Source: an uncultured bacterium
GTDB taxonomy: Bacteria > Armatimonadota > Hebobacteria > CAIYQO01
Direction of reading: 5' to 3'
NCBI GenBank assembly: GCA_903928345.1
Contig: CAIYQO010000198.1
Span: 4,325 to 68,324 of the forward strand
DNA: 64,000 bases
Of the stretch, positions 16,109 through 55,219 are shown one piece after another (position 1 is the first letter of the stretch; each line of letters begins with the position of its first letter). Under the pieces are notes generated by a model. The model had not been told where the DNA came from, did not search any database, and saw nothing but the letters and a program-made list of their open reading frames with translations. A program made the position numbers and the translations under genes.

Positions 16109-17884
16109 CTATTTGTCGACTACCCGTATCGTCTCCCGCTCCGAGCTGCCGCGGATATCCACCAGCGGGCGCCCCGCGGGCACCGTGTTGCCGGCAAGGG
16201 TCACGCGGCGGCTGTTCAGCACGATCACGGCGGGCGCCGTGCCCGCGTCGAAATGGTTGCCGCACACCTCCACGTCGTCGGATGAGCCCACGTGGATGGC
16301 CGCGCCGCCGTTGCCGTCGAAGGTGTTGCCCAGCAGGTGCAGGCGCTGGTGCACGCCCGCGGCGGATTGCCGGCCCCCGGGCAGGTCGGAGAAGATATCC
16401 AGCGCCGCCACGCGCCGCGCCACGCCGAAGTTGCACCGCCGGAAGGTGCAGCGCTGCACCGTCACGTCGCGCGAGCCCAGGCTCTCCCACCAGTCGGCGG
16501 CGTCAGTGCAGATGTGGATGCCCGCGCCGGAGATGTCCTCGAAGGTGCAATCCTCCACCACCACATCGCGGGTCTGCATCAACAGGCCGCGTGCGCGGTT
16601 GCCGTGCACCCGGCAGCGGCGGATGCGCACCGCGGGGGTGGTGCTGATGTTCGAGAGCACCGTGTGCTCCCCCACCGCGGCGGGCAGCGGGTCGGTGAAG
16701 GTGATAAGGGTGCGCTCCGCCTTCGTATCCTGCCGCGCGCTCGCCACGTGGAGCTGCCCCTGCGCCAGCAGCGGCTCGTCGCCGCCGCTGTATTCAAGCA
16801 CGTCGCCCGCCGCCGGGGCATCCCAGATGCCGCGCGTCTTGTCGTAGTAGGGATGCATCCGCGCGCGGCCCACCGCCAGCGTGTGGTCGTCCACGCGCGC
16901 CGTCGCCAGCCCGTACATGGCGTGGATATTGATGGCGTCGTCGCCCATGCCGGCGAATTCGCTGTCCTCCACGGTGATGGTGCCGCGGCAGCCGTTGAAA
17001 TGCATGGCGTCGGCGGTGGCGGACATCCACCCGCCGTCAGCGGGCACGACCTTCAAGCGGCGCACCGTGACATCCCGGCAGCCCATGCCGATCACCGCCA
17101 TGCCCGGCACCGCGTGCACCGTCACATCCTCCAGCAGCACGTCGCGGCAGCCGTAAAAGGTGAAGGCGTCATAGCCGTAGACCTGATGGCGCACCACCAC
17201 CTGCCAGCCCACCTCGGGCAGGGGCGTATCCTTCCGCTGGAAGACGCGCAAATACCCCTCCGGCGTGCGCTGCGTGGGGTCGGCGTCGCGCTCACCCTGC
17301 GTCTGGTACACCTCCCAGCCGTTCTCCGCCAGCCGATGCCGCGCCGGGTCGTAGGCGAGAATCCCCTGCACGATGCGCCCGGCCTGCGGGTCGGCGGGCG
17401 TTTCCGGCACGATATCGAAGGCGTGCGCCTCCGGCACCAGCCGCACCACGCGCCCTGAGGTATGTGGCAGCGGATCCCAGTCCACCGTCAGGTTGCGGAT
17501 GGTCAGCCCCCGCGCGTTGGCGAACACGAAGAGCCGCGCGGTGTCGCACCCCGCCAGCACCGCGCCGTGCCCGTCGATCGTCACGTGCTCCAGCCCGTCC
17601 GACATGATACTCGGCTCATGCGTGCGCCCATCCTTATGCACCGCGCCGCCCGCCACGCGATAGCGCCCCGGCGCAAACGCCACCACCGCCCCCGGCGTCT
17701 TCTTCGCCGCGTCCAGCGCCGCGCGAATGCCCGGCCCGGCATCGCTGCCATCCGCCTTCACCCCAAAATCCGCCACGTGAATCTCCACCGCCCATCCTCC
17801 CCCCGCAAAAACGAACGCCATCGCGCACAGCAAACCCCACCGCACAATCCATCTATTTTCCATTTTCCATTTCTCATTTTTCAC
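16109..17884 (-). CDS. Secreted pectate-lyase-superfamily beta-helix protein (GH28-related/Pectate_lyase_3-like N-terminus)
   Basis: IHVADFGVKADGSDAGPGIRAALDAAKK..AVVAFAPGRYRV matches the superfamily N-terminal motif. The signal peptide is MENRWIVRWGLLCAMAFVFAGGGWA. The track start is GTG 17884; ATG 17863 is an alternative. Confidence 0.65.
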   Translation of the reverse strand: MKNEKWKMENRWIVRWGLLCAMAFVFAGGGWAVEIHVADFGVKADGSDAGPGIRAALDAAKKTPGAVVAFAPGRYRVAGGAVHKDGRTHEPSIMSDGLEHVTIDGHGAVLAGCDTARLFVFANARGLTIRNLTVDWDPLPHTSGRVVRLVPEAHAFDIVPETPADPQAGRIVQGILAYDPARHRLAENGWEVYQTQGERDADPTQRTPEGYLRVFQRKDTPLPEVGWQVVVRHQVYGYDAFTFYGCRDVLLEDVTVHAVPGMAVIGMGCRDVTVRRLKVVPADGGWMSATADAMHFNGCRGTITVEDSEFAGMGDDAINIHAMYGLATARVDDHTLAVGRARMHPYYDKTRGIWDAPAAGDVLEYSGGDEPLLAQGQLHVASARQDTKAERTLITFTDPLPAAVGEHTVLSNISTTPAVRIRRCRVHGNRARGLLMQTRDVVVEDCTFEDISGAGIHICTDAADWWESLGSRDVTVQRCTFRRCNFGVARRVAALDIFSDLPGGRQSAAGVHQRLHLLGNTFDGNGGAAIHVGSSDDVEVCGNHFDAGTAPAVIVLNSRRVTLAGNTVPAGRPLVDIRGSSERETIRVVDK

Positions 17885-17896
17885 TTTTCATTCCCC
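17855..17896. repeat. Six tandem heptamers (ATTTTCC-type) spanning a gene junction
   Basis: ATTTTCC ATTTTCC ATTTCTC ATTTTTC ACTTTTC ATTCCCC. The array covers the stop of 17881..19023 and the start region of 16109..17884. Confidence 0.8.
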
Positions 17897-19023
17897 CAGT
17901 CTCCCCCCACTTCCCGCACGCACTCCGTCACGAACCGCGTCTGCGCCAGCGTGCGGTGGGGGTAGGCGGCGAGGGAAAGGATGAAGTGGTCCCACGGCGC
18001 ACCCTCCTGCACCAGCGCGTGGATGCTCTCGCGCACCGCGGGGAGGTCGTCCATCGGGTCGACGAGTTGGTGCACGCCGACCATCATGGTGATCGGCCCC
18101 AGATCGCGCCGGCCGTCCTGGACCGTGGCGTTGCCGGTGGTCGGCAGCGTGTAGGCGTGCACGGCGTCCATGCGCGTCTGCCGGTACAGCGGCAGCAGGT
18201 CGCGGATGAGGCCGCAGGAGTGGTGGAAGTACAGCTTGCCCGCCGCGTGCGTCACGTCGGCGCGGGCGTCGGTAAGGGCCAGGTTGCACGCCGCGAACAT
18301 CGCCGGGGAGATCGCCGTGGTCGAGGTGTCGTCCACGCTCACCACCACATCGATGTCCGACTGCACGCCCACCTGCAGGCGCCGCAGGTAGTTCGCCTCC
18401 ATCACCGCAAAACAGTCGCGCAGCGCGTCCGGCGCGTCGGCCCACAGGTAGGCCAGCGTGGCGACGCCGGAATACATGCGGAAGAACATCCCCAGCGGCG
18501 TGCCGTCCATCACCCCCAGCACCAGCCCGTCGTCGCCGACGAGTGCTCGCCGTGCGCGGGTGCGTTCCACGCCGACGGGGTCGAGGGTGATCTCCTCGTC
18601 CGCAAAAATGGCCGCCAGTGCCGGCAAATCCTCCGGGCCTTTCACCAGGTGCTCGGTCCAGTTGCTGGACACCGCGCCGGACGCGTCGCGGCAGACGCGG
18701 ATGGTCTCGCGCAATTCGCCGCACGGCGTGTGCCAGCGCTGCGTGGTGCTGTCGCTCTCCGTGACGCTTTCTACCGTCACGTCCCGCCGCGCGATCCGTA
18801 CCGCCGGCATGCCGAACCAATCCATGATATCCAGCCCCAGCGCGCGCGAGAAGGCCACCGTGGACGTGTCCCCCCATTGCACCTCGCCCAGCGCCGCATC
18901 CAACGCCGGGTCGATCCCCGTGCGGTCGGGCTGGTTGTACGGGTCCACGTGCCCGGTCAACGGCACCCACGCCGGCGTCTCGTGCCGAAAGATCCGCAAC
19001 ATATTCTCACGACGGGTAATCAT
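17881..19023 (-). CDS. Uroporphyrinogen-decarboxylase (URO-D) family protein, paralogue U1
   Basis: Track ORF 17881..19347. I moved the start to ATG 19023 (MITRRENMLRIF...). It has an HHSCG motif and URO-D-like layout. Its stop overlaps the GTG of the downstream gene. Confidence 0.6.
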   Translation of the reverse strand: MITRRENMLRIFRHETPAWVPLTGHVDPYNQPDRTGIDPALDAALGEVQWGDTSTVAFSRALGLDIMDWFGMPAVRIARRDVTVESVTESDSTTQRWHTPCGELRETIRVCRDASGAVSSNWTEHLVKGPEDLPALAAIFADEEITLDPVGVERTRARRALVGDDGLVLGVMDGTPLGMFFRMYSGVATLAYLWADAPDALRDCFAVMEANYLRRLQVGVQSDIDVVVSVDDTSTTAISPAMFAACNLALTDARADVTHAAGKLYFHHSCGLIRDLLPLYRQTRMDAVHAYTLPTTGNATVQDGRRDLGPITMMVGVHQLVDPMDDLPAVRESIHALVQEGAPWDHFILSLAAYPHRTLAQTRFVTECVREVGGDWGNEK

Positions 19024-19093
19024 GCCCCCAGTGTACGTCACGACGGCAGGAACGTCCAGCCATGCCGGCGGTGACGCAAAAGTCGTGGCAGAG

Positions 19094-19099
19094 TATAAT
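19094..19099 (+). promoter_or_regulatory. -10 box candidate (TATAAT) upstream of the nitrilase-family gene
   Basis: GAGTATAATA lies 28 nt upstream of ATG 19127 in the divergent intergenic region. Confidence 0.35.
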
Positions 19100-19126
19100 A
19101 CGTGCTCAGTGAAAGTGAGCGAACCT

Positions 19127-19891
19127 ATGCGCGTCGCCCTCCTCGTAACCCGCCCCACCCCGGATCGCGCGGCGAACCTGGCCGCGCTCCTCCAGCGTGC
19201 GGAGGACGCCGCGCGGGCCGGCGCGACGCTGCTCCTCTTCCCCGAGGCGGCGCTGACGGGGTTGCTCAACGACGACGACCCCGCCCACGACCTCCCGCTG
19301 GGCGAGACGATCCCCGGGCCGGCCACCGACGCGCTGGCCGCCTTCACCCGGCGCCGCGGCGTGTGGCTGGGCCTCGGGTTGCTAGAGCGCGACGGCGGGT
19401 GCCTTTATGACACGGCGGTGCTGCTCGATCCGCACGGGGAGACGCGCCTGCGCTACCGGCGCCTCCAGCCGCAATGGCACGGCCCGCAGGCCGACCCCGC
19501 GGTATATCGGCAGGGGTCGGAAATCGCCGTGACGTCGACACCCTTCGGCACGGTGAGCTTCCTGGTCTGCGGCGACCTGTTCGACGACGGCATCGTGGAT
19601 CGCCTACGGGCGGCGCGCCCCGACCTGCTCCTCGTCCCCTTCGCCCGCTGCTTCGCTGACGGCGCGGTAGAGCAGGCGCGGTGGGAGCGCGAGGAGTTAC
19701 CCGCCTATTGCGCCCGCGTGCGCCGAGTCGGCGTGCCAGCGCTGCTAGTCAACTACCTGGGCGACGCGCTGCTCGGTGACGGCAGCTTCGGGGGCGCGTT
19801 CGCCATCTCCACGCAAGGCGAAGTGCTGGCCGCGCTGCCGCTGGGCGTCGAGGAGACCCTGTACGTCGAGCTGGATGAGGTGACACGATGA
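19127..19891 (+). CDS. Carbon-nitrogen hydrolase (nitrilase superfamily)
   Basis: Track ORF 18458..19891. Its first 223 aa are antisense to U1, so I moved the start to ATG 19127. LLLFPEAAL (Glu) and SFLVCGDLF (Cys) are catalytic-type motifs. Confidence 0.75.
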   Translation: MRVALLVTRPTPDRAANLAALLQRAEDAARAGATLLLFPEAALTGLLNDDDPAHDLPLGETIPGPATDALAAFTRRRGVWLGLGLLERDGGCLYDTAVLLDPHGETRLRYRRLQPQWHGPQADPAVYRQGSEIAVTSTPFGTVSFLVCGDLFDDGIVDRLRAARPDLLLVPFARCFADGAVEQARWEREELPAYCARVRRVGVPALLVNYLGDALLGDGSFGGAFAISTQGEVLAALPLGVEETLYVELDEVTR

Positions 19892-20524: not shown

Positions 20525-21619
20525 TTATTGCGACTCGATCCGCCAGCGGTCCAGGTACACGGGGCCGGGGCCGCTGAAGTAGAACCACCAACGCGAGATG
20601 GTCGACACGCCGGTCAAGGCATTCAGCGGCAGGGTGAGTTCCACCCACTGGTTCGATTGCACCGCACCCGCGGAGACGGCGGTCGTGACACTCAACCACC
20701 CGGGCGCGGGGTTGGTGCCGACGTAATAGGCGTCGTTCTTGCTGGTGTTCCAATCGGAGAAGCCCCACAGGAGGCCGGTGATATTCCCCGCCGGGGCATA
20801 ATACCAGCCGCGGACGACGGCGGTGGTCGGGTAGGCGTACCCCAGGTCCGTTTCGCGCGTCCAGTCCCAGGCATGCTTATCGTAGCTAATGCAGGAGGTG
20901 CCGGAGAGCGGCGCGGAGCCCGGCACGGTGGTGACGAGGCTGGACGTCGAGAGATTCGGGTTATCGTTGGCGGTGCCCGAGCCATCGTCCCAGAGTACCT
21001 TTAAGCAGTTCGTACTCGAGGTCGTGACGACCGGAATCACCTCGTCCCCGTTGCGTCCGGAGTAGAAGGCACTGTCGACCGCGCCGGTCCCCTTCGACGT
21101 ATTCATCACTTCCACATGCCCATCGAGGAAACCGACGATGGTAGCCGCGCCGCCGTGGCGCGTGGTGGCGATGGCTTCCGAGGTCGAATGGCCGAAGAGA
21201 AAGCCCGGCGTGAGACTGTTGATCCAGATTGCGGGCACCGAGTTCATCGTGCCGTCCGCGGTGACCATCGTCTGTTCCGGCATTTTGAACTCGCCCAGCG
21301 CGCGCCCCGAGAGGTGGAAGGAACTCGGGCCGCCATTGTAAAAGTAGGCGTTCGTCACCGTTTTCCCGGCCGTCGGACAAATCATGACGCCTCTGTCGAG
21401 TGCCAACGCGCCCCAGACGGAATCCCCCGTGGGCAAGATTTCATCGTGGTCCTGCACATAGAGCTGAATGCCCGTGCCGATTTGCCGCTGGTTGTTCAGA
21501 CATGCCGTCTGCCGCGCTTTTTCGCGCGCCTTGGCGAACACCGGGAAGAGAATCGCCGCGAGAATCGCAATGATCGCGATTACGACAAGCAGCTCAATCA
21601 AAGTAAAGCCCTTTTTCAT
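20525..21619 (-). CDS. Prepilin-type N-terminal leader / DUF1559-like protein with a C-terminal W/Y/G-rich (carbohydrate-binding-like) module
   Basis: Track ORF 20525..21667. I moved the start to ATG 21619 (AGGAGG upstream). Motifs: [25 protein letters not shown] and GFLDGHVEV. Confidence 0.8.
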
Positions 21620-21768
21620 GGAGCCTCCTGCGATATGGTTTACTCCATCATACCACGCTCTCCCCAACTGTCAATAGATAAGTAGATAGTTATATATAAG
21701 TAGACGAAGTATATACCTGCGCTTCTATTCCTCACCGCAATCTATCAGCGATTGCAGGCCCCCCTTGT

Positions 21769-22923
21769 CTATCCAACCGCTTCCAATTCCGCATATGCCA
21801 GCGCCAGAAAGCGGTTGAGGCGGGCGAAGGTTTCGTCGTAGGTGGGGTAGAGCTTCACGATGGCCTGCGCGCAGAGGCTCACCGGGCGGCGGGTGGCGGC
21901 GCGGCGCAGGGCGGCGACTTTGGCGCACTGCGTCGGGGTGTCGTCGCTGAGGGAGACGGTGTTGATGACCGACGCGGCGAAGCCGATGCGCGGGGCGACG
22001 ACGGCGTCGAGGGCGTCCACATCGTTCCAGCCGCTCACTTCCAGCGTGGCGATCTCCGGGAAGACGGCGAGCAGGGCGTCCACGATGGGGGCCAGCGCGC
22101 CGCAGGTGTGGAAGCCCGTCACCGCCCCCTCGCCCGCCCGGATGCGCGCGTAGACGGGTACCAGCACGTCGCGGAAGAAGGCCGGGGTGATAAACGGCAC
22201 GTTCACCCAGTCGTCCGCCACGAAGGTGGTGGCCGGCAGCGCTTCCCCCAGGAAGGCCGCCCGCTCCCGCGCGAAGCGCAACCGCGCGTCGGCGAGGAAG
22301 GCCAGCGCGTCGGCTACGAAGGCGGGCCGCTCGGTGAGGTCGTCTACGAAGGCTTCGTAGCCGCGCAACTGCACGTAAATGTCCAGCGGGCCGCGGTGGA
22401 ACGGGGGGAAGCCGATGGTGAAGGCGCCGTCGTAGCGCTCCCGGTTCACCGCCTGCATGGCCGCGTATTTCGCCAGCAGGCGCGGCATGGCACCGGTGGC
22501 AGCGAAGTCGAACCGGCCCAGGGTGCGCAAGTCGGACGTCGCCGCCAGCAGGTGCGGCAGGAACTCCGGTACGCCGTCGGGCGTGTGGCGGATCTCCGCG
22601 CCGAAGAGGGTCATGTCCCAGTACCACCCCACGTCGGGGCCGGTGTGGAAGCCCGGCACGGTGTCGTCCGCCACGTTGTCCAGCCAGCAGAGCGCCTGGC
22701 GCAAGGTCAGCTCCAGTTGCCGCGCCGCGTCGTCGTGCCACTGGTCCGCGGTATACCCGAGCAGCTCCGGCCAGCCGATGTTCTCCATATAGCTGGTCAC
22801 CCGCACGCGCCCCGCGCCGGAGCGCGCGTCGCGCGCCGCAATGTCGGCCTCCCGCGCGGCGATGCCCGCCCGCAGCGCGGGAAGCAGGCGGTCCGGGGAT
22901 AAGGTAAGGGCTCGTGTCTCCAT
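21769..22923 (-). CDS. URO-D family protein, paralogue U2 (downstream of the glycyl-radical enzyme)
   Basis: Track ORF 21769..22989. I moved the start to ATG 22923 (METRAL...). Motifs: PLDIYVQLRGYEAFVDDL and GFHTCG. There is no CxxxCxxC motif. Confidence 0.6.
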   Translation of the reverse strand: METRALTLSPDRLLPALRAGIAAREADIAARDARSGAGRVRVTSYMENIGWPELLGYTADQWHDDAARQLELTLRQALCWLDNVADDTVPGFHTGPDVGWYWDMTLFGAEIRHTPDGVPEFLPHLLAATSDLRTLGRFDFAATGAMPRLLAKYAAMQAVNRERYDGAFTIGFPPFHRGPLDIYVQLRGYEAFVDDLTERPAFVADALAFLADARLRFARERAAFLGEALPATTFVADDWVNVPFITPAFFRDVLVPVYARIRAGEGAVTGFHTCGALAPIVDALLAVFPEIATLEVSGWNDVDALDAVVAPRIGFAASVINTVSLSDDTPTQCAKVAALRRAATRRPVSLCAQAIVKLYPTYDETFARLNRFLALAYAELEAVG

Positions 22924-23003
22924 CACGGATCTTTTCGCCTTCAAGCCACCGTTTCCCTCGTGGATGGGGGAAGTAAGGCTATATCGCAAAAGCGAATAAC
23001 GCC

Positions 23004-25190
23004 TTACCCCAGCCCCATCTCCGCCCGCAGCATCACCTCCGCCTGCATCTCCGGAGAGAGGCCGACGAAGTAGTCGCTGTAGCCGGCGACGCGGACGACG
23101 AGGTCACGGTGGTGCGCGGGGTGAAGCTGGGCGTCGCGCAGAGTGGCGGGGGCGACGACGTTGACTTGCGCCTCAAAACCGCCCAGGCGGAGGAAGGATT
23201 CCAGCATACCGTGCAGCGCCGCGGGCGCGGTACCGGGGGTGAAACGCATGTTGACGGCGATGCCCCCGAGCATGGGGGCGTGATCCCACTTGGTGACCGA
23301 GCGGATGGCCGCGGTGGGGCCGAGGGTTTCGCGCCCCTGCGCGGGGCCGGAGCCGTCGGCGAAGGGGAAGCCGGCGGGGCGGCCATCGGCGGAGGCGCAC
23401 GTGCCGCGCCCGAGCATTTCGTGCATGATCCAGCAGAAGAAGCCGGGCACCACCGCGTCGCCCCAGTAGCTGCGGTAGCGGGCGCACTCGACGCGCAGGA
23501 AGTCGGTAAGCGTCACCGCCAGCGCATCCACGGTGTCATCGTCGGTGCCATACTTGGGCACGCGCGCCAACTGCGCTCGCACCGCGGGAAAGCCGTCGAA
23601 ATTCGCCAGCAACGCCTCGCGCAGCGTAGCGAGGGGCAGCGTGCCGTCGGTAAAGACGCACCGGCGGATGGCGGCCAGCGCGTCGACCAGATTCGCCAGC
23701 CCGACGAAGGAGGACTCTACCCAGTTCACCCGCGCGCCCCCCTGGTCGATATCGCGTCCGCGGCCCAGACAGTCGTGCACGAAGCAGGAGAGGAGCGGGA
23801 AGCCGCCGCCCTGCGCGCGGCTCTGCATACACGCGTGCTGCTCCACCACCCCGGAGCGGATGACCTCGCGCAGCCGGGCGCGGAACCGATCGAGCAGGTC
23901 GTCGAAGCTCGCGAGTGCGGGCAGCGGCCCCGCCGCGCCACCCAGCGGCGGGATGCCCAGCACGTCGTGCAGGCACTGGATCAGGTTGTAGTACGGGCTG
24001 GCGACGTATACGTTGCTGCAGGCGACGGGGGTGATCTCCACGCAGGTGGAGTGGATGTACAGGCAGGCGTCGCGGAGGGGCAGCCCCTGATCGAGCAGGC
24101 CGCGGGTGATGACCTCGTCGTTGAAGAGGGCCGGGTGGCTGTAGCCGCGCGCCAGCAGCGCGCTCGCCAGCGCAAGCAGCTCGGGTGGGGTTTCCCGCGA
24201 CCAGCAGACGCCCACGCCGGGGTAGGCCAGCCGCACGTGGCCGATGGTTTGCGTGAAGAGGTAGCTCAGCGCGTTGGTGACATCGGCGCCGTGCTCGTCG
24301 CGCCCGCCGACCATCCACCCCACCGCCAACCCGCGCGGCGTGTATTCGTTCAGCAGCAGCGCCAGGCAGTCGATCAACTCCTGCGCCGCCTCCGGGGTGA
24401 TACGCCCGGCGGCCAGGTCGCGCGCGTAAAAGGCCCACAGATACCGGTCAGGCCGCCCGAGTTGGAAGAGGCACATGCGGTTGCCCGCGCAGAGGCAGAA
24501 GGTGAGAAAGTGCACGGCCTGCAACGCCTCGCGGAAGCTTTCCGGCGGATGCAACGGTACGCGGCGGCAGACACGAGCGATCTCCCGCAGCTCGGTCGCA
24601 CGCTCGGGGGTCGCGTCGGCGGCCAACGCCTCCGCGTGGTCGGCATACTTCGCGGCGAGCGCCGTCACGCCGTCCAGCGCCTCCAGGCAAGCGCGGTAAA
24701 AGCAGTCCTTTTCGTAGTCGTCGCCGCGCGAGGTGTCCAGCGCGTCGCGGAAGCGCTCGATGCGCGCGCGGAGGCCGGCGATGCCGTCGCGCAGCAACAG
24801 ATCGTAGTCCACCGCCATGTGGGCACGCTGGCCGTTGGCTTTGCTCGTTGCCGGTTCGCCATATTCCTGCCAGCGCGCCACCTCGGCGGCTTCCTCCGCC
24901 GTCAGCGGGCGCGGGGAGAACTTGCCCACCAGCAATTCGTCGGGATCGATAACCGGCGTAAGGCCGCGCAGAATCTCCCCCGCCAGCCGCCCGCGGCGCA
25001 GGATATGGCTGGCCTCCGCCCCGCTCCCCCACCACGACCGCGCCGCCAGCAACTCCACCTCCGGCCCCGCTCCGCAGCCGTCGTGCGCCGCCGCGAGGGC
25101 ATGCGCGCGCAGGCGCTCCACGCGCGGCGTGGCGGAGGTGAGGAGGGCGGTGGTGTTACTCATACCGGAAGTATTGCCAAAACCGCCCAT
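23004..25190 (-). CDS. Glycyl-radical enzyme, PFL-like / dehydratase-type (Cys-x-Glu)
   Basis: C-terminal DLVVRVAGYSDYFVGLS is the glycyl-radical fingerprint RVxG[YFW]. HSTCVEITP is the thiyl Cys with Glu at +2. The N-terminal pattern RVERLRAHAL...IDPDELLVG fits the family. ATG 25163 is an alternative start. Confidence 0.8.
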   Translation of the reverse strand: MGGFGNTSGMSNTTALLTSATPRVERLRAHALAAAHDGCGAGPEVELLAARSWWGSGAEASHILRRGRLAGEILRGLTPVIDPDELLVGKFSPRPLTAEEAAEVARWQEYGEPATSKANGQRAHMAVDYDLLLRDGIAGLRARIERFRDALDTSRGDDYEKDCFYRACLEALDGVTALAAKYADHAEALAADATPERATELREIARVCRRVPLHPPESFREALQAVHFLTFCLCAGNRMCLFQLGRPDRYLWAFYARDLAAGRITPEAAQELIDCLALLLNEYTPRGLAVGWMVGGRDEHGADVTNALSYLFTQTIGHVRLAYPGVGVCWSRETPPELLALASALLARGYSHPALFNDEVITRGLLDQGLPLRDACLYIHSTCVEITPVACSNVYVASPYYNLIQCLHDVLGIPPLGGAAGPLPALASFDDLLDRFRARLREVIRSGVVEQHACMQSRAQGGGFPLLSCFVHDCLGRGRDIDQGGARVNWVESSFVGLANLVDALAAIRRCVFTDGTLPLATLREALLANFDGFPAVRAQLARVPKYGTDDDTVDALAVTLTDFLRVECARYRSYWGDAVVPGFFCWIMHEMLGRGTCASADGRPAGFPFADGSGPAQGRETLGPTAAIRSVTKWDHAPMLGGIAVNMRFTPGTAPAALHGMLESFLRLGGFEAQVNVVAPATLRDAQLHPAHHRDLVVRVAGYSDYFVGLSPEMQAEVMLRAEMGLG

Positions 25191-25200
25191 TCCGTCAAGC

Positions 25201-26901
25201 TCATGCGGCCTGTTGCCAGGGCTGCCCGCTTTGCATAGTGTAGATGTCGCGCAGGGTTTGCAGGGTGTCGATTTCGTCGAGGGTTTTTTCGGGACGGAAG
25301 CGCACGATGCGGGCGAAGCGGAGGGCCACGCCGCCGGGGTAGGACGGGCTGAGCTGAATCTGGTTGAAGGCCACCTCGACGATGATTTCCGGCGGCACGG
25401 TCACGGTGTGGGCTTCCGGGTCAGTGGTCAGATCGAGCAGCGCGGTGGTGACCTCGGCGAATTCCTCGTCGGTCAGCCCTTTGAAGGTTTTGCCCACCTC
25501 CACCAGCGCGCCGGTGACGATGTCCCGCGCGGCGAGGTGGTAGTTTGACAGCCAGCCGGTGCGACGCCCGTACCCCCATTCCGCGGCGGTGATGACCAGC
25601 TCTACGGTGAGGGCTTCCTTGATCTTCAGCCACTCCCCGCCGCGCACGCCGGGGGTGTAAAGGCCTTCCAGCCGTTTGGCGACCAATCCCTCGTGGCCGG
25701 CGTCAATGGCCTGATCGAAAAAGGCCGCGCCCTCCTCCACCGTGACGGGCAGGCAGCGCGGCGTGAGAATGAGCACCGACCCGGCGGCGAGCACCTGCGT
25801 CAACTCGCCCCAGCGTTCGGCGTTCGTGGACTCCAGCAGCGAGCGCCCGTCGCGCAGCAACAGGTCGAAGAGGTAGACGCGCACCGGCGCCTCCGCGAGC
25901 AAACGCGGCACGTCGCGCACGCGGCGGAAGCGGCGCATCAACTCCGGGAAGGGCAGCACGGCGCCGTCCGCCCCGACCGCGACGACCTCGCCTTCCAATA
26001 TCGCCGTCTCCGCGGTTATCTGTGTGCGCACCGCCTCTACCACCTCAGGCAGGCTGGCGGTGATCTCCATCAGGTGACGCGTATAGAGGCGCACCTCCCC
26101 CCCGCGCTTGTGGATCTGCACCCGCGCGCCGTCCAGCTTGTACTCCAGCGCCAACGCACCGGCCTGGCGCACCCACGCGGCGGGCACGTCGTCCACCGCC
26201 TGCGCCAGCATGGGACGCAGCGGGGTGAAGAGGCCGATCTCCAGCCGCTCCAGCACCGCCGTGCCCTCGCTCAGCGCCAGAACGGCCAGCGTGCCGACAT
26301 CCCCCACCAGCATGAAGGCGCGCTGCACCAGCGCGAAGTCGGCGTCGATGGCCAGCGCGATGCCTTCCAGCAGCAGGCCTTCGTTCACGCCGTGGCGCAT
26401 CTCACCCACCACATTGCGCACCAGGAAAGCGGCCTCATCGGGGTCGGCGCGGCAAAGCAACTCGCGCAGCAGCAGCTCCTTCTCCCCGCGCGACCCGCCG
26501 CCGCCCAGCGCGGCGATCTGCACCAGCGTGGCATACACTTCGCCGACGGTGAGCGCCTCCGTTTCCTCCGCGCAGATGCCGCGCTGCTTGGGGAGGTTGA
26601 GGAAGATTGTCCGCACGCCCGAGGCGAAGTCGACGGCGCCGGTGGTCTGGCGCTGCAGCACGTCTTTCGGCTGCCCGAAGATGGGCTCGAGCGTGCGCCA
26701 CACCGCGGCGGCGCTGAGACGCAGCGCCGCCTGCTCTGCGGCGGGAAAGGCCTTGCCGATGAGCAGGCGCGCCGTCTGTTCCACCTCGTCGGGGGTCACT
26801 GCGGTGAGCGCCTCCGCCGCCAGTTGCCGCAGCGCGCGCCGGCTGCGTGTGCCCGCCATGCGCAGCCCGAAATCCGTCAATACACGAAAGGACGTCGCCA
26901 T
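25201..26901 (-). CDS. lig: ATP-dependent DNA ligase (Lig1/archaeal-type, three-domain)
   Basis: Track ORF 25201..26952. I moved the start to ATG 26901. EYKLDGARVQIH is the KxDG adenylation motif, and the length is typical. Confidence 0.85.
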   Translation of the reverse strand: MATSFRVLTDFGLRMAGTRSRRALRQLAAEALTAVTPDEVEQTARLLIGKAFPAAEQAALRLSAAAVWRTLEPIFGQPKDVLQRQTTGAVDFASGVRTIFLNLPKQRGICAEETEALTVGEVYATLVQIAALGGGGSRGEKELLLRELLCRADPDEAAFLVRNVVGEMRHGVNEGLLLEGIALAIDADFALVQRAFMLVGDVGTLAVLALSEGTAVLERLEIGLFTPLRPMLAQAVDDVPAAWVRQAGALALEYKLDGARVQIHKRGGEVRLYTRHLMEITASLPEVVEAVRTQITAETAILEGEVVAVGADGAVLPFPELMRRFRRVRDVPRLLAEAPVRVYLFDLLLRDGRSLLESTNAERWGELTQVLAAGSVLILTPRCLPVTVEEGAAFFDQAIDAGHEGLVAKRLEGLYTPGVRGGEWLKIKEALTVELVITAAEWGYGRRTGWLSNYHLAARDIVTGALVEVGKTFKGLTDEEFAEVTTALLDLTTDPEAHTVTVPPEIIVEVAFNQIQLSPSYPGGVALRFARIVRFRPEKTLDEIDTLQTLRDIYTMQSGQPWQQAA

Positions 26902-27044
26902 AGTAACAGTATGCGACACGGGGAGCCGTTGCGGTGTGTGGGTGTCAGCCAAAGGTGGGGAAAATCGACGGTGCGGGTGTGGATATCACCGGGGAAACGC
27001 CCCCTTTCCCTCTCGAAACGAGCCCCCGCGCATGGCTGTCGCCG

Positions 27045-34731: not shown

Positions 34732-35280
34732 ATGCCGATTTTTACCGATGACCAACACCAATATCTGCTCACGCTGGCGCGCGCGGCGCTGACGGCGGCG
34801 GTGACGGACGACCACGTGGCGCTGCCGGCGGAGGTGGACGCCGCCTTCCGCACGCCGCTGGGAGCCTTCGTGACGCTTACGGCCGACGGGGAGTTGCGCG
34901 GGTGCATCGGGTATCCCGAGCCCGTCTTCCCCCTGTACGAAACCATCGTGCGCGGCGCGATGTCCGCGGCGTTGCATGACCCGCGTTTCTCACCCGTCAC
35001 CGCGAACGAATTACCCGGCCTGCGCGTGGAAGTCTCCGTGCTCTCCCCGCTGGCGCCCATCGCCCCGGAGGCGGTGGAGGTGGGCACGCACGGCCTGGTG
35101 ATCGAAAAGGGCACCCGGCGCGGCCTGCTGCTGCCCCAGGTGCCGACAGAATACGGCTGGAGCCGCGACGAATTCCTCGCCTACACCTGCCGCAAAGCCG
35201 GCCTCCCCCAGGACGCCTGGCGCGACCCCGCCGCCAAACTGTTCGGCTTCACGGCGGAAGTGTTTCACGAAGGGGTGTAG
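34732..35280 (+). CDS. AMMECR1 domain protein
   Basis: Inside track ORF 34489..35280. ATG 34732 with GAGGTG RBS. Motifs: GELRGCIGYPEP and GLLLPQVP. Confidence 0.85.
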   Translation: MPIFTDDQHQYLLTLARAALTAAVTDDHVALPAEVDAAFRTPLGAFVTLTADGELRGCIGYPEPVFPLYETIVRGAMSAALHDPRFSPVTANELPGLRVEVSVLSPLAPIAPEAVEVGTHGLVIEKGTRRGLLLPQVPTEYGWSRDEFLAYTCRKAGLPQDAWRDPAAKLFGFTAEVFHEGV

Positions 35281-35331
35281 GTACCGGGGAACAATGTAGC
35301 CGCAAAAAACAGGCCGGCGATCTCTCGCCAA

Positions 35332-35366
35332 CCTGTTCCCTGTTCCCTGATCCCTCTTCCCTACTT
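35332..35366. repeat. Five tandem heptamers (CCTGTTC-type)
   Basis: CCTGTTC CCTGTTC CCTGATC CCTCTTC CCTACTT. The last unit contains the stop of 35361..36119. The same AACCTGTTCC lead-in is seen at 42311. Confidence 0.8.
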
Positions 35367-36119
35367 CGGCGCGGACACGTCGGCGCTGCCGGATTTGTAG
35401 GGGATAACGACGGGGGTCGACGGGCCGGTGGGCTGTTGCAGCGCGTGGATCCCGGTTGGTTTGTGCGTGGGGGGCGTCGGGGCGTTAAGCTGGTTGGAGC
35501 GCAGCGTCACCAGGAAGATCGTCACGGCCAGGATAGCACACACGAGGATGATAATGATGCCGGTGCCGGTGGTCAGACCGCCGGCGTTAAATTTACGCGG
35601 GGCGGGCTGCTGCGCGGGCGGGCGCGGCGGTTCGTCGTCGCCGGCGAAGACGGGCCGCGTGGTGAGCGAGTCGAGCAGCGGGGTGGCCGAGGTGGCCGCT
35701 TCGTCCGGAATGGTCAGCTTCTGCTCGGACATCGTCGGCACGGGTATCGCCGACGTGGCGACGAAGGTGGGAATCTGTTGGGCGGGCGGCGGGGTGGCGG
35801 GCAGGCCCGCGCGCGTCTTGGCCTCTTCGATTTTGGAGGGCAGGTTCATCAGCGCGGCGGTGTCATACGCTTTTTTATACACCGTAACGGCATCGGGGGC
35901 GCGGTTGGCCTGCATCAGGGTGTCGCCGAGTAACTCGAGGATCTTGGCGGACTGCTGGGTGGGCATCGGCGCGCGAGCGATGGCGGCATAGATGCGCATG
36001 GCATCGTCGTACTGCCCCAGTGCGCGCAGTTTCGTCGCCTCGACGATACGCGCCGCGATATTGACCTCTTCAGCCGGCGCCGGCTGCGCGGTCGGTGCCA
36101 TGCTCTCTTCGTCCGCCAT
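35361..36119 (-). CDS. Hypothetical single-pass membrane protein (TPR-like N-terminus, Pro-rich linker)
   Basis: Track ORF. TM segment TGIIIILVCAILAVTIFLV. No family recognised. Confidence 0.5.
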   Translation of the reverse strand: MADEESMAPTAQPAPAEEVNIAARIVEATKLRALGQYDDAMRIYAAIARAPMPTQQSAKILELLGDTLMQANRAPDAVTVYKKAYDTAALMNLPSKIEEAKTRAGLPATPPPAQQIPTFVATSAIPVPTMSEQKLTIPDEAATSATPLLDSLTTRPVFAGDDEPPRPPAQQPAPRKFNAGGLTTGTGIIIILVCAILAVTIFLVTLRSNQLNAPTPPTHKPTGIHALQQPTGPSTPVVIPYKSGSADVSAPK

Positions 36120-37754: not shown

Positions 37755-37790
37755 TCCGCGTCCTCCAGCATGAAAGGTACGCCGCGATAC

Positions 37791-39029
37791 ATGACAGCAA
37801 CTCGTGTCGTCATCACGGGTATCGGCTTGGTCACCCCGGTCGGGATTGGCGTTGACGCCACTTGGCGCGCCATACAGGCCGGGGTTTCCAGCGCAGGCCC
37901 CATAACCGCGTTCGACGCGTCCGCATACGATGCGCGATTCGCTTGCCAGATCCATGATTTCGAACCTACCGATTTCATCGATAAACGGCAGGTGAAGCAT
38001 CTGGACCGCTACACGCAATTCGCCCTGGCGGCGGCACAGATGGCCGTAGCCGATTCCGGGCTGGAGATCACCGAGGAACTCGCCCCCAACGTGGGCGTCA
38101 TCATCGGCTCCGGCATCGGCGGCATGGCCACCTGGGAAAAACAGCATGCCATTTTGATGGAAAAGGGCCCCAACCGGGTCAGCCCCTTCCTGATTCCCAT
38201 GCTGATCGCCGACACCGCCTCCGGCATGGTCTCCATTGCCTTCAACGCCCAGGGCCCGAACATGGCCGTGGTCACCGCCTGCGCCTCCAGTGCGCACTCC
38301 ATCGGCGAATCGGCGGAGATGATCCGCCGCGGCGCCGCGACGGCGATGATCTGCGGCGGTGCCGAGGCCACCATCACGCCACTCGCCGTCGCCGGGTTCG
38401 CCTCCATGAAGGCGCTCTCCTTCCGCAACGACGATCCGTTGCACGCCAGCCGGCCCTTCGACAAGGGGCGCGACGGTTTTGTGATGGGCGAAGGCTCCGG
38501 TGTGCTGATCCTGGAAGAGTATGAGCACGCTCGCGCCCGCGGCGCGAAGATCTACGGCGAACTCATCGGCTATGGTGCCAGCGGCGACGCCCACCACATG
38601 ACCGCCCCGCATCCGTGCGGCACGGGTATTGCCGGTGCCATGGCGCGCGCCATGAAGCAGGCCGGGGTCGCGCCCGAGCAGATCGGCTACATCAACGCCC
38701 ACGGCACCTCCACCGCGGCGAACGACCGCATTGAATCGATGGCGATGCACACCGCCTTCGGGGAGGCCGCCTACCGGGTGCCGGTGAGTTCCACCAAGTC
38801 GATGACCGGGCACCTGCTGGGTGCGGCGGGCGCCGTGGAGATCATCCTGTGCCTGCTCGGTATGCGCGACGGCGTGCTGCCGCCGACGATCAACTACAGC
38901 GAGCCGGATCCGGAGTGCGACCTGGACTATGTGCCGAACGAAGCCCGCGCGGCGACGTACGGCATCGCCATGTCCAATTCCCTCGGCTTCGGCGGGCACA
39001 ACGCCTCGCTCATCGTCGCCAAGGTCTAA
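37791..39029 (+). CDS. fabF: Beta-ketoacyl-ACP synthase II
   Basis: Track ORF 37770..39029. I prefer start ATG 37791 (MTATRVVITGIG, a typical FabF N-terminus). Motifs: VTACASSAHSIG, NAHGTSTAAND, GHLLGAAG. Confidence 0.92.
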   Translation: MTATRVVITGIGLVTPVGIGVDATWRAIQAGVSSAGPITAFDASAYDARFACQIHDFEPTDFIDKRQVKHLDRYTQFALAAAQMAVADSGLEITEELAPNVGVIIGSGIGGMATWEKQHAILMEKGPNRVSPFLIPMLIADTASGMVSIAFNAQGPNMAVVTACASSAHSIGESAEMIRRGAATAMICGGAEATITPLAVAGFASMKALSFRNDDPLHASRPFDKGRDGFVMGEGSGVLILEEYEHARARGAKIYGELIGYGASGDAHHMTAPHPCGTGIAGAMARAMKQAGVAPEQIGYINAHGTSTAANDRIESMAMHTAFGEAAYRVPVSSTKSMTGHLLGAAGAVEIILCLLGMRDGVLPPTINYSEPDPECDLDYVPNEARAATYGIAMSNSLGFGGHNASLIVAKV

Positions 39030-52296: not shown

Positions 52297-53763
52297 ATGG
52301 ATTTTGCCGTACGCTTTCGAGACGCATACCATCACCGCCGCGAGCCGGTCACCGGCAGACTGACGGTGGCACAGGATACTGTCACGTTGGAGTGGCGGGA
52401 GCCGCTGGTGCCGGGATGGATTGTCGCATACATTTCTGCCTGCGGTATGATTCTCATCTTTGATGCCTTCCCGATCGCGCTCATCTTCCAGACATTCTTT
52501 TGGCAGTTTGAGGCATTCGATGCAGCGCGTGGGTTCACTGTCAGCGGGTTATTCTCGCTCCCCATATTATTGCTGATTTGTGTGTTGCCGCTTCGGCGAA
52601 AGACCCGTATTATCCCGCGCGCAGAGATTACTGATCTCATCGTCGAGAAGGGTTACATCACGTGTTCCGCAGAAGGGCGGGAGTATCTCTTTGTTCTCAA
52701 TGCTACGGATGACACGCAAGCCGCGGCCACCGCGTTACGAGAGGGGTGCGCCGTACCGCAGACGTGGAAATATACCGATACCCCGAGGGTTGCGCGTGAC
52801 AGATCCACCATCGAACGTTCGCAAGTCGTGGATGTCACCATCGATGCCGGGGTGTTGACCGTCGCTGGCCTAGTGATCGAAGAACGCTGGCACCAGTGGC
52901 TGTTACTACTGAATGTTTATTCATTTTTAGCGTTGTTTTATCCGTTTCTCCTCCTTTCCAATATCGCAAACCTGTGGATCAATACTGGTATTCCGCTTTG
53001 CGCCATGGCGTTACTAGCGATATCATTCCGCTGGTTGCAACGGGTGAAGTGCGAAACCATCTGCTGGCAACTGGGAGAGATCACCGAGATTGAAGCGAAG
53101 GAAAGGCACGTCGTTTTTCGCGTGCCGGATGGAAAAGGCAAGACGCGCCGGTTCGTCTGGTTGCTGCCCACACAGGAAGAAACGGATGCCGTGGCGGCAC
53201 GTTTGCGCGGCGAGATCCATGAGCGATGGGCGGCGACACTGGCATCTACTCGTTCACGGAGTCAATTCCGACTGCGTCCGCCCCTGACCGATGTGTTGAC
53301 TGTGCCGCGGCGCATCTCCGTAGAGGACGAGCAGGTTACGATCACCGGTCGCACCGGTCTGCGCCATCCCCATGCCGGATGGTGGGCGCTGGGTATCAGC
53401 GCGGCAGGCTTCGTGATCTTGCGAGTTATACTCGAGGCGCGATTCGCCGCACTCGGGCTGGGAGCACCGGAGTTTCCTGCTTTAGCAGTCGTTTCCGCGG
53501 CCATGCTGGCAATTGGCCTCATTTTTCTCCCCACGGCACTGCTCATCAACCTCTGGTATGCTCGCGGTATCCGCCTGCCGCGCAAGGCAATTTCCGTCAC
53601 GGTGCAGGAAGACCGGCGACTGGTGTTCGAGATACATGGGAAGTGGCGGATTGAACTCCTCGCCGCGTCCGAAGCCGACGCCCGCGCCCTCTGCGCGGCC
53701 TTCACTCCGCCTTCTGCTTCACCAGATGCGTCCCCTCACCCCACATTGACTCCCCCCAGATGA
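52297..53763 (+). CDS. Polytopic membrane protein with threefold internal repeat; paralogue 2
   Basis: Track ORF 52078..53763. I moved the start to ATG 52297. The first 7 aa are identical to paralogue 1 (MDFAVRF), as is the C-terminal AASEADARALCAA.TP. The middle is divergent. Confidence 0.55.
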   Translation: MDFAVRFRDAYHHRREPVTGRLTVAQDTVTLEWREPLVPGWIVAYISACGMILIFDAFPIALIFQTFFWQFEAFDAARGFTVSGLFSLPILLLICVLPLRRKTRIIPRAEITDLIVEKGYITCSAEGREYLFVLNATDDTQAAATALREGCAVPQTWKYTDTPRVARDRSTIERSQVVDVTIDAGVLTVAGLVIEERWHQWLLLLNVYSFLALFYPFLLLSNIANLWINTGIPLCAMALLAISFRWLQRVKCETICWQLGEITEIEAKERHVVFRVPDGKGKTRRFVWLLPTQEETDAVAARLRGEIHERWAATLASTRSRSQFRLRPPLTDVLTVPRRISVEDEQVTITGRTGLRHPHAGWWALGISAAGFVILRVILEARFAALGLGAPEFPALAVVSAAMLAIGLIFLPTALLINLWYARGIRLPRKAISVTVQEDRRLVFEIHGKWRIELLAASEADARALCAAFTPPSASPDASPHPTLTPPR

Positions 53764-55219
53764 CCGTGCCGGTCAGGCTGCGCGGGCCGGTGATGCTGTC
53801 TACCCGCACCTCGGCGATGGGGCGGTCGTGGCGGGTGATGGTGATGGTGTCGTGCGGGCGCAGCTTGCGGGTGAAGCAGCGAACGGTCACCGGCGTGTCG
53901 TGGGAGACCGGTTTGCCGGCGAGCACCAATTCGGTCAGCGCGCGCGCCACGCAGCGGATGGCCGTCGCCTCAAGCGTCCCCTCTACGTTGGGGTGCTTGC
54001 CGTCGTCCATGCGCTGCACGGCGGCGGGGATGCCGACGAGCTGCTCCTCCGCCGTCCACGGCCCGCTCTTCCGCGTCTGCGCGATGGCCGTCAGCGTGCC
54101 GTGCAGGCCGCTGGCGGGCTGCGTCCAGGCAATGGATGCCTCGACCGCGGTGCCGGTGGCCGGGTCCAGCGTCTCCGCGCCCCCCGCGGGCACCTCGCGC
54201 ACGGACAGCACGGCGGTGAAGTCGGCGTCGCGCCGCCACGCCGGCGGGGTCACCTCGGGCGCCTCGCCGAAGATGGCGCAGTGCTCCGGCGCCGCGTGCA
54301 CGTAGAGCGCCCCCTCGCCGTGGGCGTAGAGCTGCTCCGCCAGGTAGCTGGGCATCCAGGTGCGCCCGTGCTGGGCGGACGGGTCGAGGTCCAGCTCGAG
54401 CAGCGCCGGCGGCGGCAGCACCGTCACGGGCGCGGTGGTCATTGCCTCCAACGACTTCTGCAGGTTCTTCACGCGCCAGGTGGTGTCGGGATGGCTGGCG
54501 TACAGGCCGGTGAGCCACGTGCGCGCCGTGCCGTTGCCGTAGGCGTTGTAGATGCGGGTCATGGCGGTGACGGACTGCGCGGGGTCGAAACCGGCGCGCG
54601 CGGCAAAGCGCACCCCCTGCTCGTCGGCCCGGCGCTCGTCTGAGCGGCTGTCCAGGCCGAAGGTCAACCCGCCGCCGATATCCGCCCCCACGCGCGCCGC
54701 CGCCCCGCCGCCGCCCAGCAGGACGGTGGCCGCCGCGCCCACCACCGCGCCGCCCAGCGCGCGCACGACCTGCCGAGCGGAGTGGTGCTCCTTGATGTGG
54801 GTCATCTCATGCCCAAGGATAAAGGCCAACTCGTCGTCGGAAGCCAGGTGCGCCATCCCCGCGCCCACATATATGTGCCCGTCGGGAAAGGCCATGGCGT
54901 TGATCTCGCCGTTGTTGTAGATGTGCAGCTCGATATGCCGCAACCCCGCCGCCCGTGCCAGCCGCTGCCCGATCATCTGCACCCGCACGTTGGCGGAGAG
55001 ATCCGGGTCGGCCCCAAAGCGCTTGACGAGGTAGCCGCCGTCGTCAGCACGGGCGGCGAGGGTGGCAACGAGAAGCAGCAGCAGGAGCGTGACGCGGGTG
55101 AATGCCCGTGGGGGTATTGCGGATTGCGGATTGCGGATTGCGGATTCTGCAGACGCGAACCGACTGCCTGATGCACGGGGCGGGTGAGCAGCGGAAGGGT
55201 TTGGGGATAGATATTCCAT
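53702..55219 (-). CDS. M48-family zinc metallopeptidase with a ~250-aa C-terminal domain of unknown function
   Basis: Track ORF 53702..55228. I prefer start ATG 55219 (AGGAGG 9 nt upstream). Zinc motif AFILGHEMTHIKEHH. Signal/anchor TLLLLLLVATLAARA. Codons ~24-35 are encoded by the heptamer array. Confidence 0.8.
   Translation of the reverse strand: MEYLSPNPSAAHPPRASGSRFASAESAIRNPQSAIPPRAFTRVTLLLLLLVATLAARADDGGYLVKRFGADPDLSANVRVQMIGQRLARAAGLRHIELHIYNNGEINAMAFPDGHIYVGAGMAHLASDDELAFILGHEMTHIKEHHSARQVVRALGGAVVGAAATVLLGGGGAAARVGADIGGGLTFGLDSRSDERRADEQGVRFAARAGFDPAQSVTAMTRIYNAYGNGTARTWLTGLYASHPDTTWRVKNLQKSLEAMTTAPVTVLPPPALLELDLDPSAQHGRTWMPSYLAEQLYAHGEGALYVHAAPEHCAIFGEAPEVTPPAWRRDADFTAVLSVREVPAGGAETLDPATGTAVEASIAWTQPASGLHGTLTAIAQTRKSGPWTAEEQLVGIPAAVQRMDDGKHPNVEGTLEATAIRCVARALTELVLAGKPVSHDTPVTVRCFTRKLRPHDTITITRHDRPIAEVRVDSITGPRSLTGTVIWGESMWGEGTHLVKQKAE
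55116..55146. repeat. Heptamer array (ATTGCGG) x4, left arm of the four-helix-bundle cassette
   Basis: ATTGCGGATTGCGGATTGCGGATTGCGGATT. It lies inside the 5' coding region of the M48 gene, where it is translated as ESAIRNPQSAI. Confidence 0.9.

Follow-up and report, generated by a model that had tools for sequence, protein, structure and literature searches.

A compact glycyl radical enzyme of an uncultured Armatimonadota bacterium, a putative radical dehydratase with candidate activases encoded on other contigs

The stretch of DNA analyzed here, referred to as the window, comprises 64,000 nucleotides from an uncultured member of the Armatimonadota (GenBank assembly GCA_903928345.1; contig CAIYQO010000198.1, hereafter C198, positions 4325-68324) and belongs to a metagenome-assembled genome (MAG) of 6.06 Mb, in 318 contigs, that is 96% complete. 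Its minus strand carries, at positions 23004-25190 and between a URO-D-like gene and a DNA ligase gene, an open reading frame (ORF) for a compact PFL-like glycyl radical enzyme (GRE) of 728 amino acids (aa), when read from the ATG at 25190. In profile searches the product matched Pfam PFL-like (PF02901) with 363 bits over residues 119-592 and Pfam Gly_radical (PF01228) with 75 bits over residues 610-709, both far above the cut-offs. A preliminary description of this DNA had already taken the 728-aa ORF for a GRE on account of its glycyl-radical fingerprint, and the Pfam search that it proposed, together with translation of the motifs, confirmed this assignment, with the Gly and Cys loops intact. 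The true start is probably M10 (ATG at 25163, product of 719 aa), since a 79% identical ortholog begins there, and the two start options explain why the ligase stop codon, at 25201, is placed 10-37 nt upstream of the GRE start.

The reading frame is uninterrupted and all the catalytic residues are intact. On the minus strand, Gly703 (codon 23082-23084) lies in the Gly loop R700-V-A-G703-Y-S and Cys383 (codon 24042-24044) in the Cys loop S-T-C383-V-E385-I, both codons having been checked by translation, while Glu385 (codon 24036-24038) is the Glu of the C-x-E motif. His124 (codon 24819-24821) aligns with the catalytic-acid His of the dehydratases, which is His166 in 5i2a (propanediol dehydratase) and, by matched ranges, His164 in 1r8w (glycerol dehydratase); the whole residue mapping is alignment-based. 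In an alignment of 60 orthologs, RVAG703YS, C383-V384-E385, and H124 are invariant, so that the Cys-x-Glu motif recognized in the preliminary description proved to be a fixed feature of the family. The catalytic Cys is preceded by Thr instead of Gly.

The best PDB sequence matches of the GRE are the choline trimethylamine-lyase CutC (329 bits), the propanediol dehydratase 9rco, the Roseburia propanediol dehydratase 5i2a, and the glycerol dehydratase 1r8w, with about 26-29% identity to these three kinds of enzymes in the fold search. Structure prediction, also proposed beforehand, gave a confident GRE fold: the AlphaFold2 model, built on the 60 orthologs, has a pLDDT of 91 and a pTM of 0.92, and in Foldseek it matched over 40 GRE chains (TM 0.85-0.90), as a ten-stranded beta/alpha barrel. 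Against propanediol dehydratase, CutC, and glycerol dehydratase the TM-score was 0.88-0.90, with 5i2g as the best match (TM 0.90). With the propanediol dehydratase of Roseburia inulinivorans (5I2A/5I2G; also 9RCO) the GRE shares the barrel, besides the RVxG glycyl loop, the C-V-E thiyl loop, the counterpart of His166, and the N-terminal 'DELxVG' helix region, but it is only 27-29% identical to it and about 90-115 residues shorter, mostly because of an N-terminal deletion of about 55 residues, and it differs further in having Ala397 for Asp and Thr for Gly before the Cys, no shell genes in the genome, and no adjacent activase. The B12-independent glycerol dehydratase of Clostridium butyricum (1R8W/1R9D; TM 0.90) has in His164, Cys433, Glu435, and Gly763 the counterparts of H124, C383, E385, and G703, but is 26% identical, has 787 aa, and keeps the Asp447 whose counterpart is lost here. 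CutC (5FAU, 9F3W) resembles the GRE in fold and in the C-x-E motif, but the GRE lacks a bacterial microcompartment (BMC) context; no match to the BMC shell protein (PF00936) was found in the whole genome, and a microcompartment association was rejected for that reason.

As had been remarked from its length, the enzyme is shorter than characterized members of the group (728 aa compared with 776-850 aa for the characterized eliminases in the PDB). It lacks 50-120 residues relative to CutC and the propanediol and glycerol dehydratases, about 55 of them from a segment that spans residues 112-185 in 9rco and 104-122 in the query. The two N-terminal stretches earlier described as typical of PFL-like dehydratase/lyase-type enzymes, RVERLR and IDPDELLVG, do align with the N-terminal parts of CutC and of a propanediol dehydratase. 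Nevertheless, the GRE scores below the cut-off of every NCBIfam family: 397 vs. 678 for PFL2-3 (TIGR01774), 299 vs. 1050 for CutC (TIGR04394), 299 vs. 1100 for HypD, 294 vs. 1000 for the HpsG/HpfG equivalog, and 278 vs. 1109 for the PflD-type model PRK09983. Since every curated GRE model was matched but missed by a wide margin, the GRE stands outside all the named GRE families.

The gene is under purifying selection, with a dN/dS of 0.19, at a dS of 0.72, against the 79% identical ortholog of the closest relative (locus L027). Orthologs form at least 120 clusters, are 53-100% identical to the query among the matches listed, and come from Armatimonadota, Anaerolineae/Chloroflexota, Bacillota, and other MAGs; for the genome itself, their records indicate an Armatimonadota affiliation (Chthonomonadales-like). 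These data bear on the decaying relic considered in the preliminary description, taken here as a decaying or silent gene, no longer activatable once its own activase had been lost. Such a loss would fit the 71.5-kb contig C198, which carries no activase, and the adjacent activase that about half of the orthologs retain elsewhere. However, the open frame, the intact catalytic residues, and the dN/dS value are at odds with decay; an orthologous activase is present on another contig of the same genome (C115); and the ten other solo GRE paralogs of this genome retain the glycyl residue and the catalytic Cys, all but one of them having orthologs of 52-70% identity in other genera. A relic is thus extremely unlikely, and we rejected it on the grounds of dN/dS, motif conservation, and the large conserved family of orthologs.

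Profile searches found no match to Radical_SAM (PF04055) or to the GRE-activase model (TIGR02494) on contig C198. Only three CxxxCxxC strings occur in ORFs of at least 80 aa, two of them within hydrophobic stretches, and were judged not to be radical-SAM motifs; a hidden activase in the window was rejected because the contig is without any Radical_SAM match, which agrees with the earlier remark that no ORF in the 64 kb shows a radical-SAM motif. In the whole genome, only two activases exceed the TIGR02494 cut-off, one at C21:20024-20851 and the other at C115:37838-38701; they share 44% identity, and a third activase candidate is NrdG-like. The weaker TIGR02494 matches were set aside as NrdG-like, MiaB/UPF0004-type, or RlmN-type proteins, and the further weak ones as apparently QueE-like and ferredoxin-like proteins, judged from sequence alone. 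In relatives, an activase directly adjoins the GRE ortholog in 9/17 informative loci, and those of the Armatimonadota loci (L017, L018, L030, and L033) score 391-486 bits to the C115 activase vs. 240-261 bits to the C21 activase. The C115 activase is accordingly the ortholog of this GRE's usual neighbor, the two genes having simply become separated in this genome. The activase serving the GRE would most likely be that of C115:37838-38701, with C21:20024-20851 as the alternative. No GRE was found on contig C115, where the immediate upstream neighbor of the activase is unrelated and a large ORF follows downstream. The proposal of a remote or shared activase, for which a genome search for PflA-like genes had been recommended, is therefore supported, with two activases, on contigs C21 and C115, for 11 GREs, and with the C115 protein orthologous to the activases that adjoin the orthologs.

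Clues to the substrate come from the gene order around orthologs. In Anaerolineae, GRE orthologs of 56-59% identity lie in a conserved operon with a GH106-like gene, an activase, the GRE, and a short-chain dehydrogenase/reductase (SDR) resembling D-mannonate oxidoreductase, which continues with an unknown 299-aa protein, a Ni-dependent putative hexonate epimerase (LarA homologue), gnd, which encodes the decarboxylating 6-phosphogluconate dehydrogenase, and PPi-PFK. This gene set looks like an undescribed anaerobic sugar-acid route. The set of SDR, 299-aa protein, LarA-type protein, gnd, and PPi-PFK was seen beside a GRE in L019, L020, L026, and L049, with an adjacent activase in L019, L020, and L049; the GRE beside the set in L026 is only 29% identical to the query. 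Other GRE orthologs adjoin rhamnosidase, melibiase, or apiosidase-like genes, and a second, divergent GRE often follows in tandem (L017, L018, L028, L029, and L048). By analogy with these neighborhoods, our best guess is that the substrate is a hydroxylated compound derived from a sugar or sugar acid.

We consider it likely that the GRE is functional, that it represents an uncharacterized compact clade (about 720 aa), and that it is most likely a C-O-cleaving 1,2-eliminase, i.e., a radical dehydratase, acting on a hydroxylated, probably sugar-derived substrate. According to a 2026 review, C-O-cleaving eliminases work by hydrogen abstraction through the thiyl radical, loss of the substrate hydroxyl's proton to the Glu of the C-x-E motif, and protonation of the departing hydroxyl by His164 (PMC13450708). 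In the mechanism we envisage, a radical-SAM activase encoded elsewhere would abstract the alpha hydrogen of Gly703, and the glycyl radical would then make a thiyl radical on Cys383, which would take the substrate hydrogen beside a hydroxyl; Glu385 would deprotonate that hydroxyl, the neighboring leaving group would be protonated by His124, and the product radical would regain a hydrogen from Cys383. GREs do difficult anaerobic chemistry, and whole clades of them are still without a tested member (PMC13450708, section 7). The compact clade of this oxygen-sensitive enzyme is one of these; it occurs widely among Armatimonadota and Anaerolineae of anoxic habitats, in linkage with genes for sugars or sugar acids.

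Some observations speak against this assignment and have to be set beside it. The substrate-binding Asp found 12 residues past the Glu, which is Asp447 in glycerol dehydratase, is replaced in the GRE family by an invariant Ala (Ala397; codon 24000-24002, minus strand), and therefore the substrate should not be a simple small diol bound as in the glycerol and propanediol dehydratases. Every NCBIfam GRE model was missed, that of the PFL2-3 subfamily included. The partners of the Anaerolineae operon are absent from this genome, so that the substrate could differ. The draft nature of the MAG makes it possible that an activase was left unassembled. Moreover, because the Cys-x-Glu motif is found in the GRE isomerases YbiW and PflD as well (PMC13450708), it does not separate elimination from ring-opening isomerization. 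With these points taken in, the chemistry is probably dehydratase-like, as the alignments suggest, and the substrate probably bound in a way different from glycerol or propanediol.

The shared motif opens the way to another reading, in which the GRE is an isomerase or ring-opening lyase of the YbiW/PflD type ('anhydroglycolysis', 8ID7/8ID0), acting on a sugar, a sugar phosphate, or a sugar acid, and not a net dehydratase. The structures of PflD and YbiW match the GRE model at TM 0.86-0.88 (0.87-0.88 in the comparison with 8ID7/8ID0), the carbohydrate-linked context of its relatives is alike, the partners in the Anaerolineae operon (hexonate-type SDR, putative hexonate epimerase, gnd, and PPi-PFK) point to the metabolism of sugar acids or sugar phosphates, and glycosidase genes adjoin several orthologs. 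On the other hand, propanediol dehydratase, CutC, and glycerol dehydratase, all eliminases, outrank PflD and YbiW in both sequence and fold; the identity to the isomerases is 25-28%, with scores below the model cut-offs, widely so for PRK09983; and the GRE retains the His typical of the dehydratases (His164 in the glycerol enzyme). We thus regard an isomerase as unlikely and retain the radical dehydratase as the preferred assignment.

The genome holds 11 PFL-like GREs of 703-768 aa, of which the ten others are 25-37% identical to the window GRE. These ten intact, compact paralogs are distributed over contigs C21, C51, C92, C121, C158, C197, C208 (three copies), and C297, and most of them are solo genes that adjoin unrelated housekeeping genes (FKBP, Ppx, LepA, MazG, and IMPDH). 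The Gly and the Cys are kept in 11/11 paralogs and the His in 10/11. The Gly loops follow R-[VM]-[ASGT]-G-[YFW]-[STA], and the Cys loops have diversified, nine retaining the complete C-x-E (middle residue V, H, V, T, I, I, T, Q, W) and two being without the Glu (C-G-Q and C-H-W). Since nearly every paralog has an ortholog of 52-70% identity in another genus, while within the genome the ten others stand so far from the window GRE, the set is old and stable.

A similar disproportion between enzymes and activases extends to the taxonomic family, in which the GRE:activase counts are 15:2, 14:2, 14:2, 11:1, 11:1, 8:1, 6:0, 4:1, 3:2, and 1:1. We give about an even chance to the proposition that, in this Armatimonadota family, a stable set of 8-15 compact GREs of ancient divergence, mostly scattered solo genes, is served by one or two activases of broad promiscuity and used to break down carbohydrate-derived compounds anaerobically. 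Activase cross-reactivity is known only among highly similar GREs (PMC13450708), and sharing on this scale, which we infer from gene counts only, would be unusual. If true, promiscuous activation would go well beyond the documented cross-reactivity of near-identical GREs and would contradict the working assumption of one specific activase per GRE, and a naturally general activase would be a practical reagent for orphan GREs that cannot yet be activated in vitro. Literature searches on GREs with URO-D, on Armatimonadota, on Anaerolineae, and on orphan activases brought up no work either on this clade or on GRE:activase ratios of the many-to-few kind.

Downstream of the GRE, on the same strand and after a spacer of 80 nt (22924-23003), lies the gene of a URO-D/MtaA-like TIM-barrel protein of 384 aa (21769-22923, minus strand). 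Its presence at that distance had been noted beforehand, and it is borne out as a weak match to the superfamily: the Pfam URO-D score is 29.1 bits, for a cut-off of 23.9, and covers profile positions 81-258 of 346 only, whereas among the NCBIfam models only MtaA-like ones responded, with 28 bits vs. a cut-off of 244. These scores support membership at the level of the superfamily only, and the protein would be neither HemE nor a recognized MtaA or CmuA. Its orthologs, of 48-70% identity, have invariant H272, T273, C274, and G275, an H-x-C-G motif that we take to be at the position of the MtaA-type zinc ligand motif. What further distinguishes it from URO-D and MtaA types is that it belongs to a lineage-wide expansion, with 43-88 copies in most of the genomes counted. 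The 6-Mb genome has about 65 URO-D-like genes by PF01208 and 88 by a custom hidden Markov model (HMM) built from its own URO-D-like proteins, and seven sister genomes have 12-77 (43-77 in six of them and 12 in the seventh). Another divergent URO-D-like gene, at a distance of 3.7 kb from the GRE (17881-19347, minus strand; Pfam URO-D E = 3.4e-4, custom HMM E = 7.7e-32), shows the density of the family in the window. Further copies in the window lie, in C198 coordinates (from which 4324 is subtracted for window positions), at 34926-36029, 37789-38835, and 52976-54205, and URO-D-like genes are often found near glycosidases.

The pairing had been read as a sign of a two-step conversion, that is, a dedicated pathway in which the TIM-barrel protein decarboxylates or (de)methylates the GRE product, or else acts before the GRE. 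Because the two genes are 80 nt apart and no terminator-like hairpin was found on the minus strand of the spacer, their co-transcription is possible. Another GRE of this genome, C208:23146-25374, is likewise followed, after 135 nt, by a URO-D-like gene, and of the 48 GRE genes in the seven sister genomes 4-5 adjoin one, among them a 69% ortholog of this GRE (L086, genome G004); pooled, about 7/59 GREs (about 12%) have such a neighbor, vs. a background of about 3% taken from this genome alone. URO-D-like genes also lie within 5-6 kb of the orthologs in L022, L048, and L050 (about 5 kb in the last two). Locus L052 of genome G001 has two GREs with a single URO-D-like gene between them.

However, the pairing is missing from the closest relative and from nearly all the loci of orthologs. 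In L027, where the GRE is 79% identical, synteny breaks exactly at the GRE stop codon and an unrelated 326-aa gene lies downstream. Searched with the custom HMM, 17 GRE ortholog loci had no adjacent URO-D-like gene, only distant ones in L022 and L027, and an orthologous URO-D neighbor occurs in none of about 20 ortholog loci, so that the survey of co-occurrence suggested in the preliminary description did not yield a conserved association. From the opposite side, 3/3 loci of the URO-D-like protein's own orthologs are without a GRE. The L086 neighbor is only 27% identical to the window protein and convergently oriented, and the GRE-adjacent URO-D-like genes belong to different subfamilies. Chance adjacency is, moreover, to be expected from the copy numbers here and in six of the seven relatives. 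In this genome, 3.1% of long genes and 2/11 GREs lie within 300 nt of a URO-D-like gene (P = 0.044 under a uniform null), and the enrichment relative to that null is inflated if, as is probable, genes of both families gather in variable catabolic regions. A conserved GRE/URO-D pair was rejected both from the GRE side (phmmer and custom HMM, in 17 and then 48 loci) and from the URO-D side (the three ortholog loci). We thus find a dedicated two-step pathway very unlikely. The adjacency, only marginally above chance (P about 0.04), does not speak for a dedicated partnership, and the weak co-localization at the level of the families probably comes from both of them populating variable catabolic regions.

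Upstream of the GRE, the gene that the preliminary description had named as a DNA ligase is indeed one, encoding a three-domain ATP-dependent enzyme (25201-26952, minus strand; Pfam DNA_ligase_A_N/M/C, and NCBIfam TIGR00574 above the cut-off). The genes are collinear with those of L027 from the GRE stop (23004) onward, across ligase, asd, aspartokinase, and dapA, up to about 33057 and so beyond 33 kb. The ligase belongs to this conserved housekeeping block and not to a GRE pathway: none of the 48 GRE loci of relatives has a ligase next to the GRE, an arrangement seen only here and in L027, and linkage of the ligase to the GRE was rejected for being conserved only in L027. Both the URO-D-like gene and the ligase are positional accidents, the GRE being at the junction of the conserved housekeeping block and a variable block of expanded families. 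Other DNA-repair genes were seen beside GRE orthologs, namely Ku and LigD beside a GRE-activase pair in a Capsulimonadaceae MAG (L030/L031, 11220-14680) and a uracil-DNA glycosylase upstream of the ortholog in another MAG (L028, 7248-7877); these three anecdotal cases, the window ligase included, are probably coincidence. The variable block downstream of the GRE opens with a prepilin-type N-methylation/DUF1559 protein (20525-21667, minus strand; Pfam N_methyl and SBP_bac_10). Proteins of this type lie at or near 4/11 GREs, that is, besides the window one, at C208:21723-22994, C197:11207-12373, and C158:33204-34289; the DUF1559 family is hugely expanded, and its proximity to the GREs may be due to chance.

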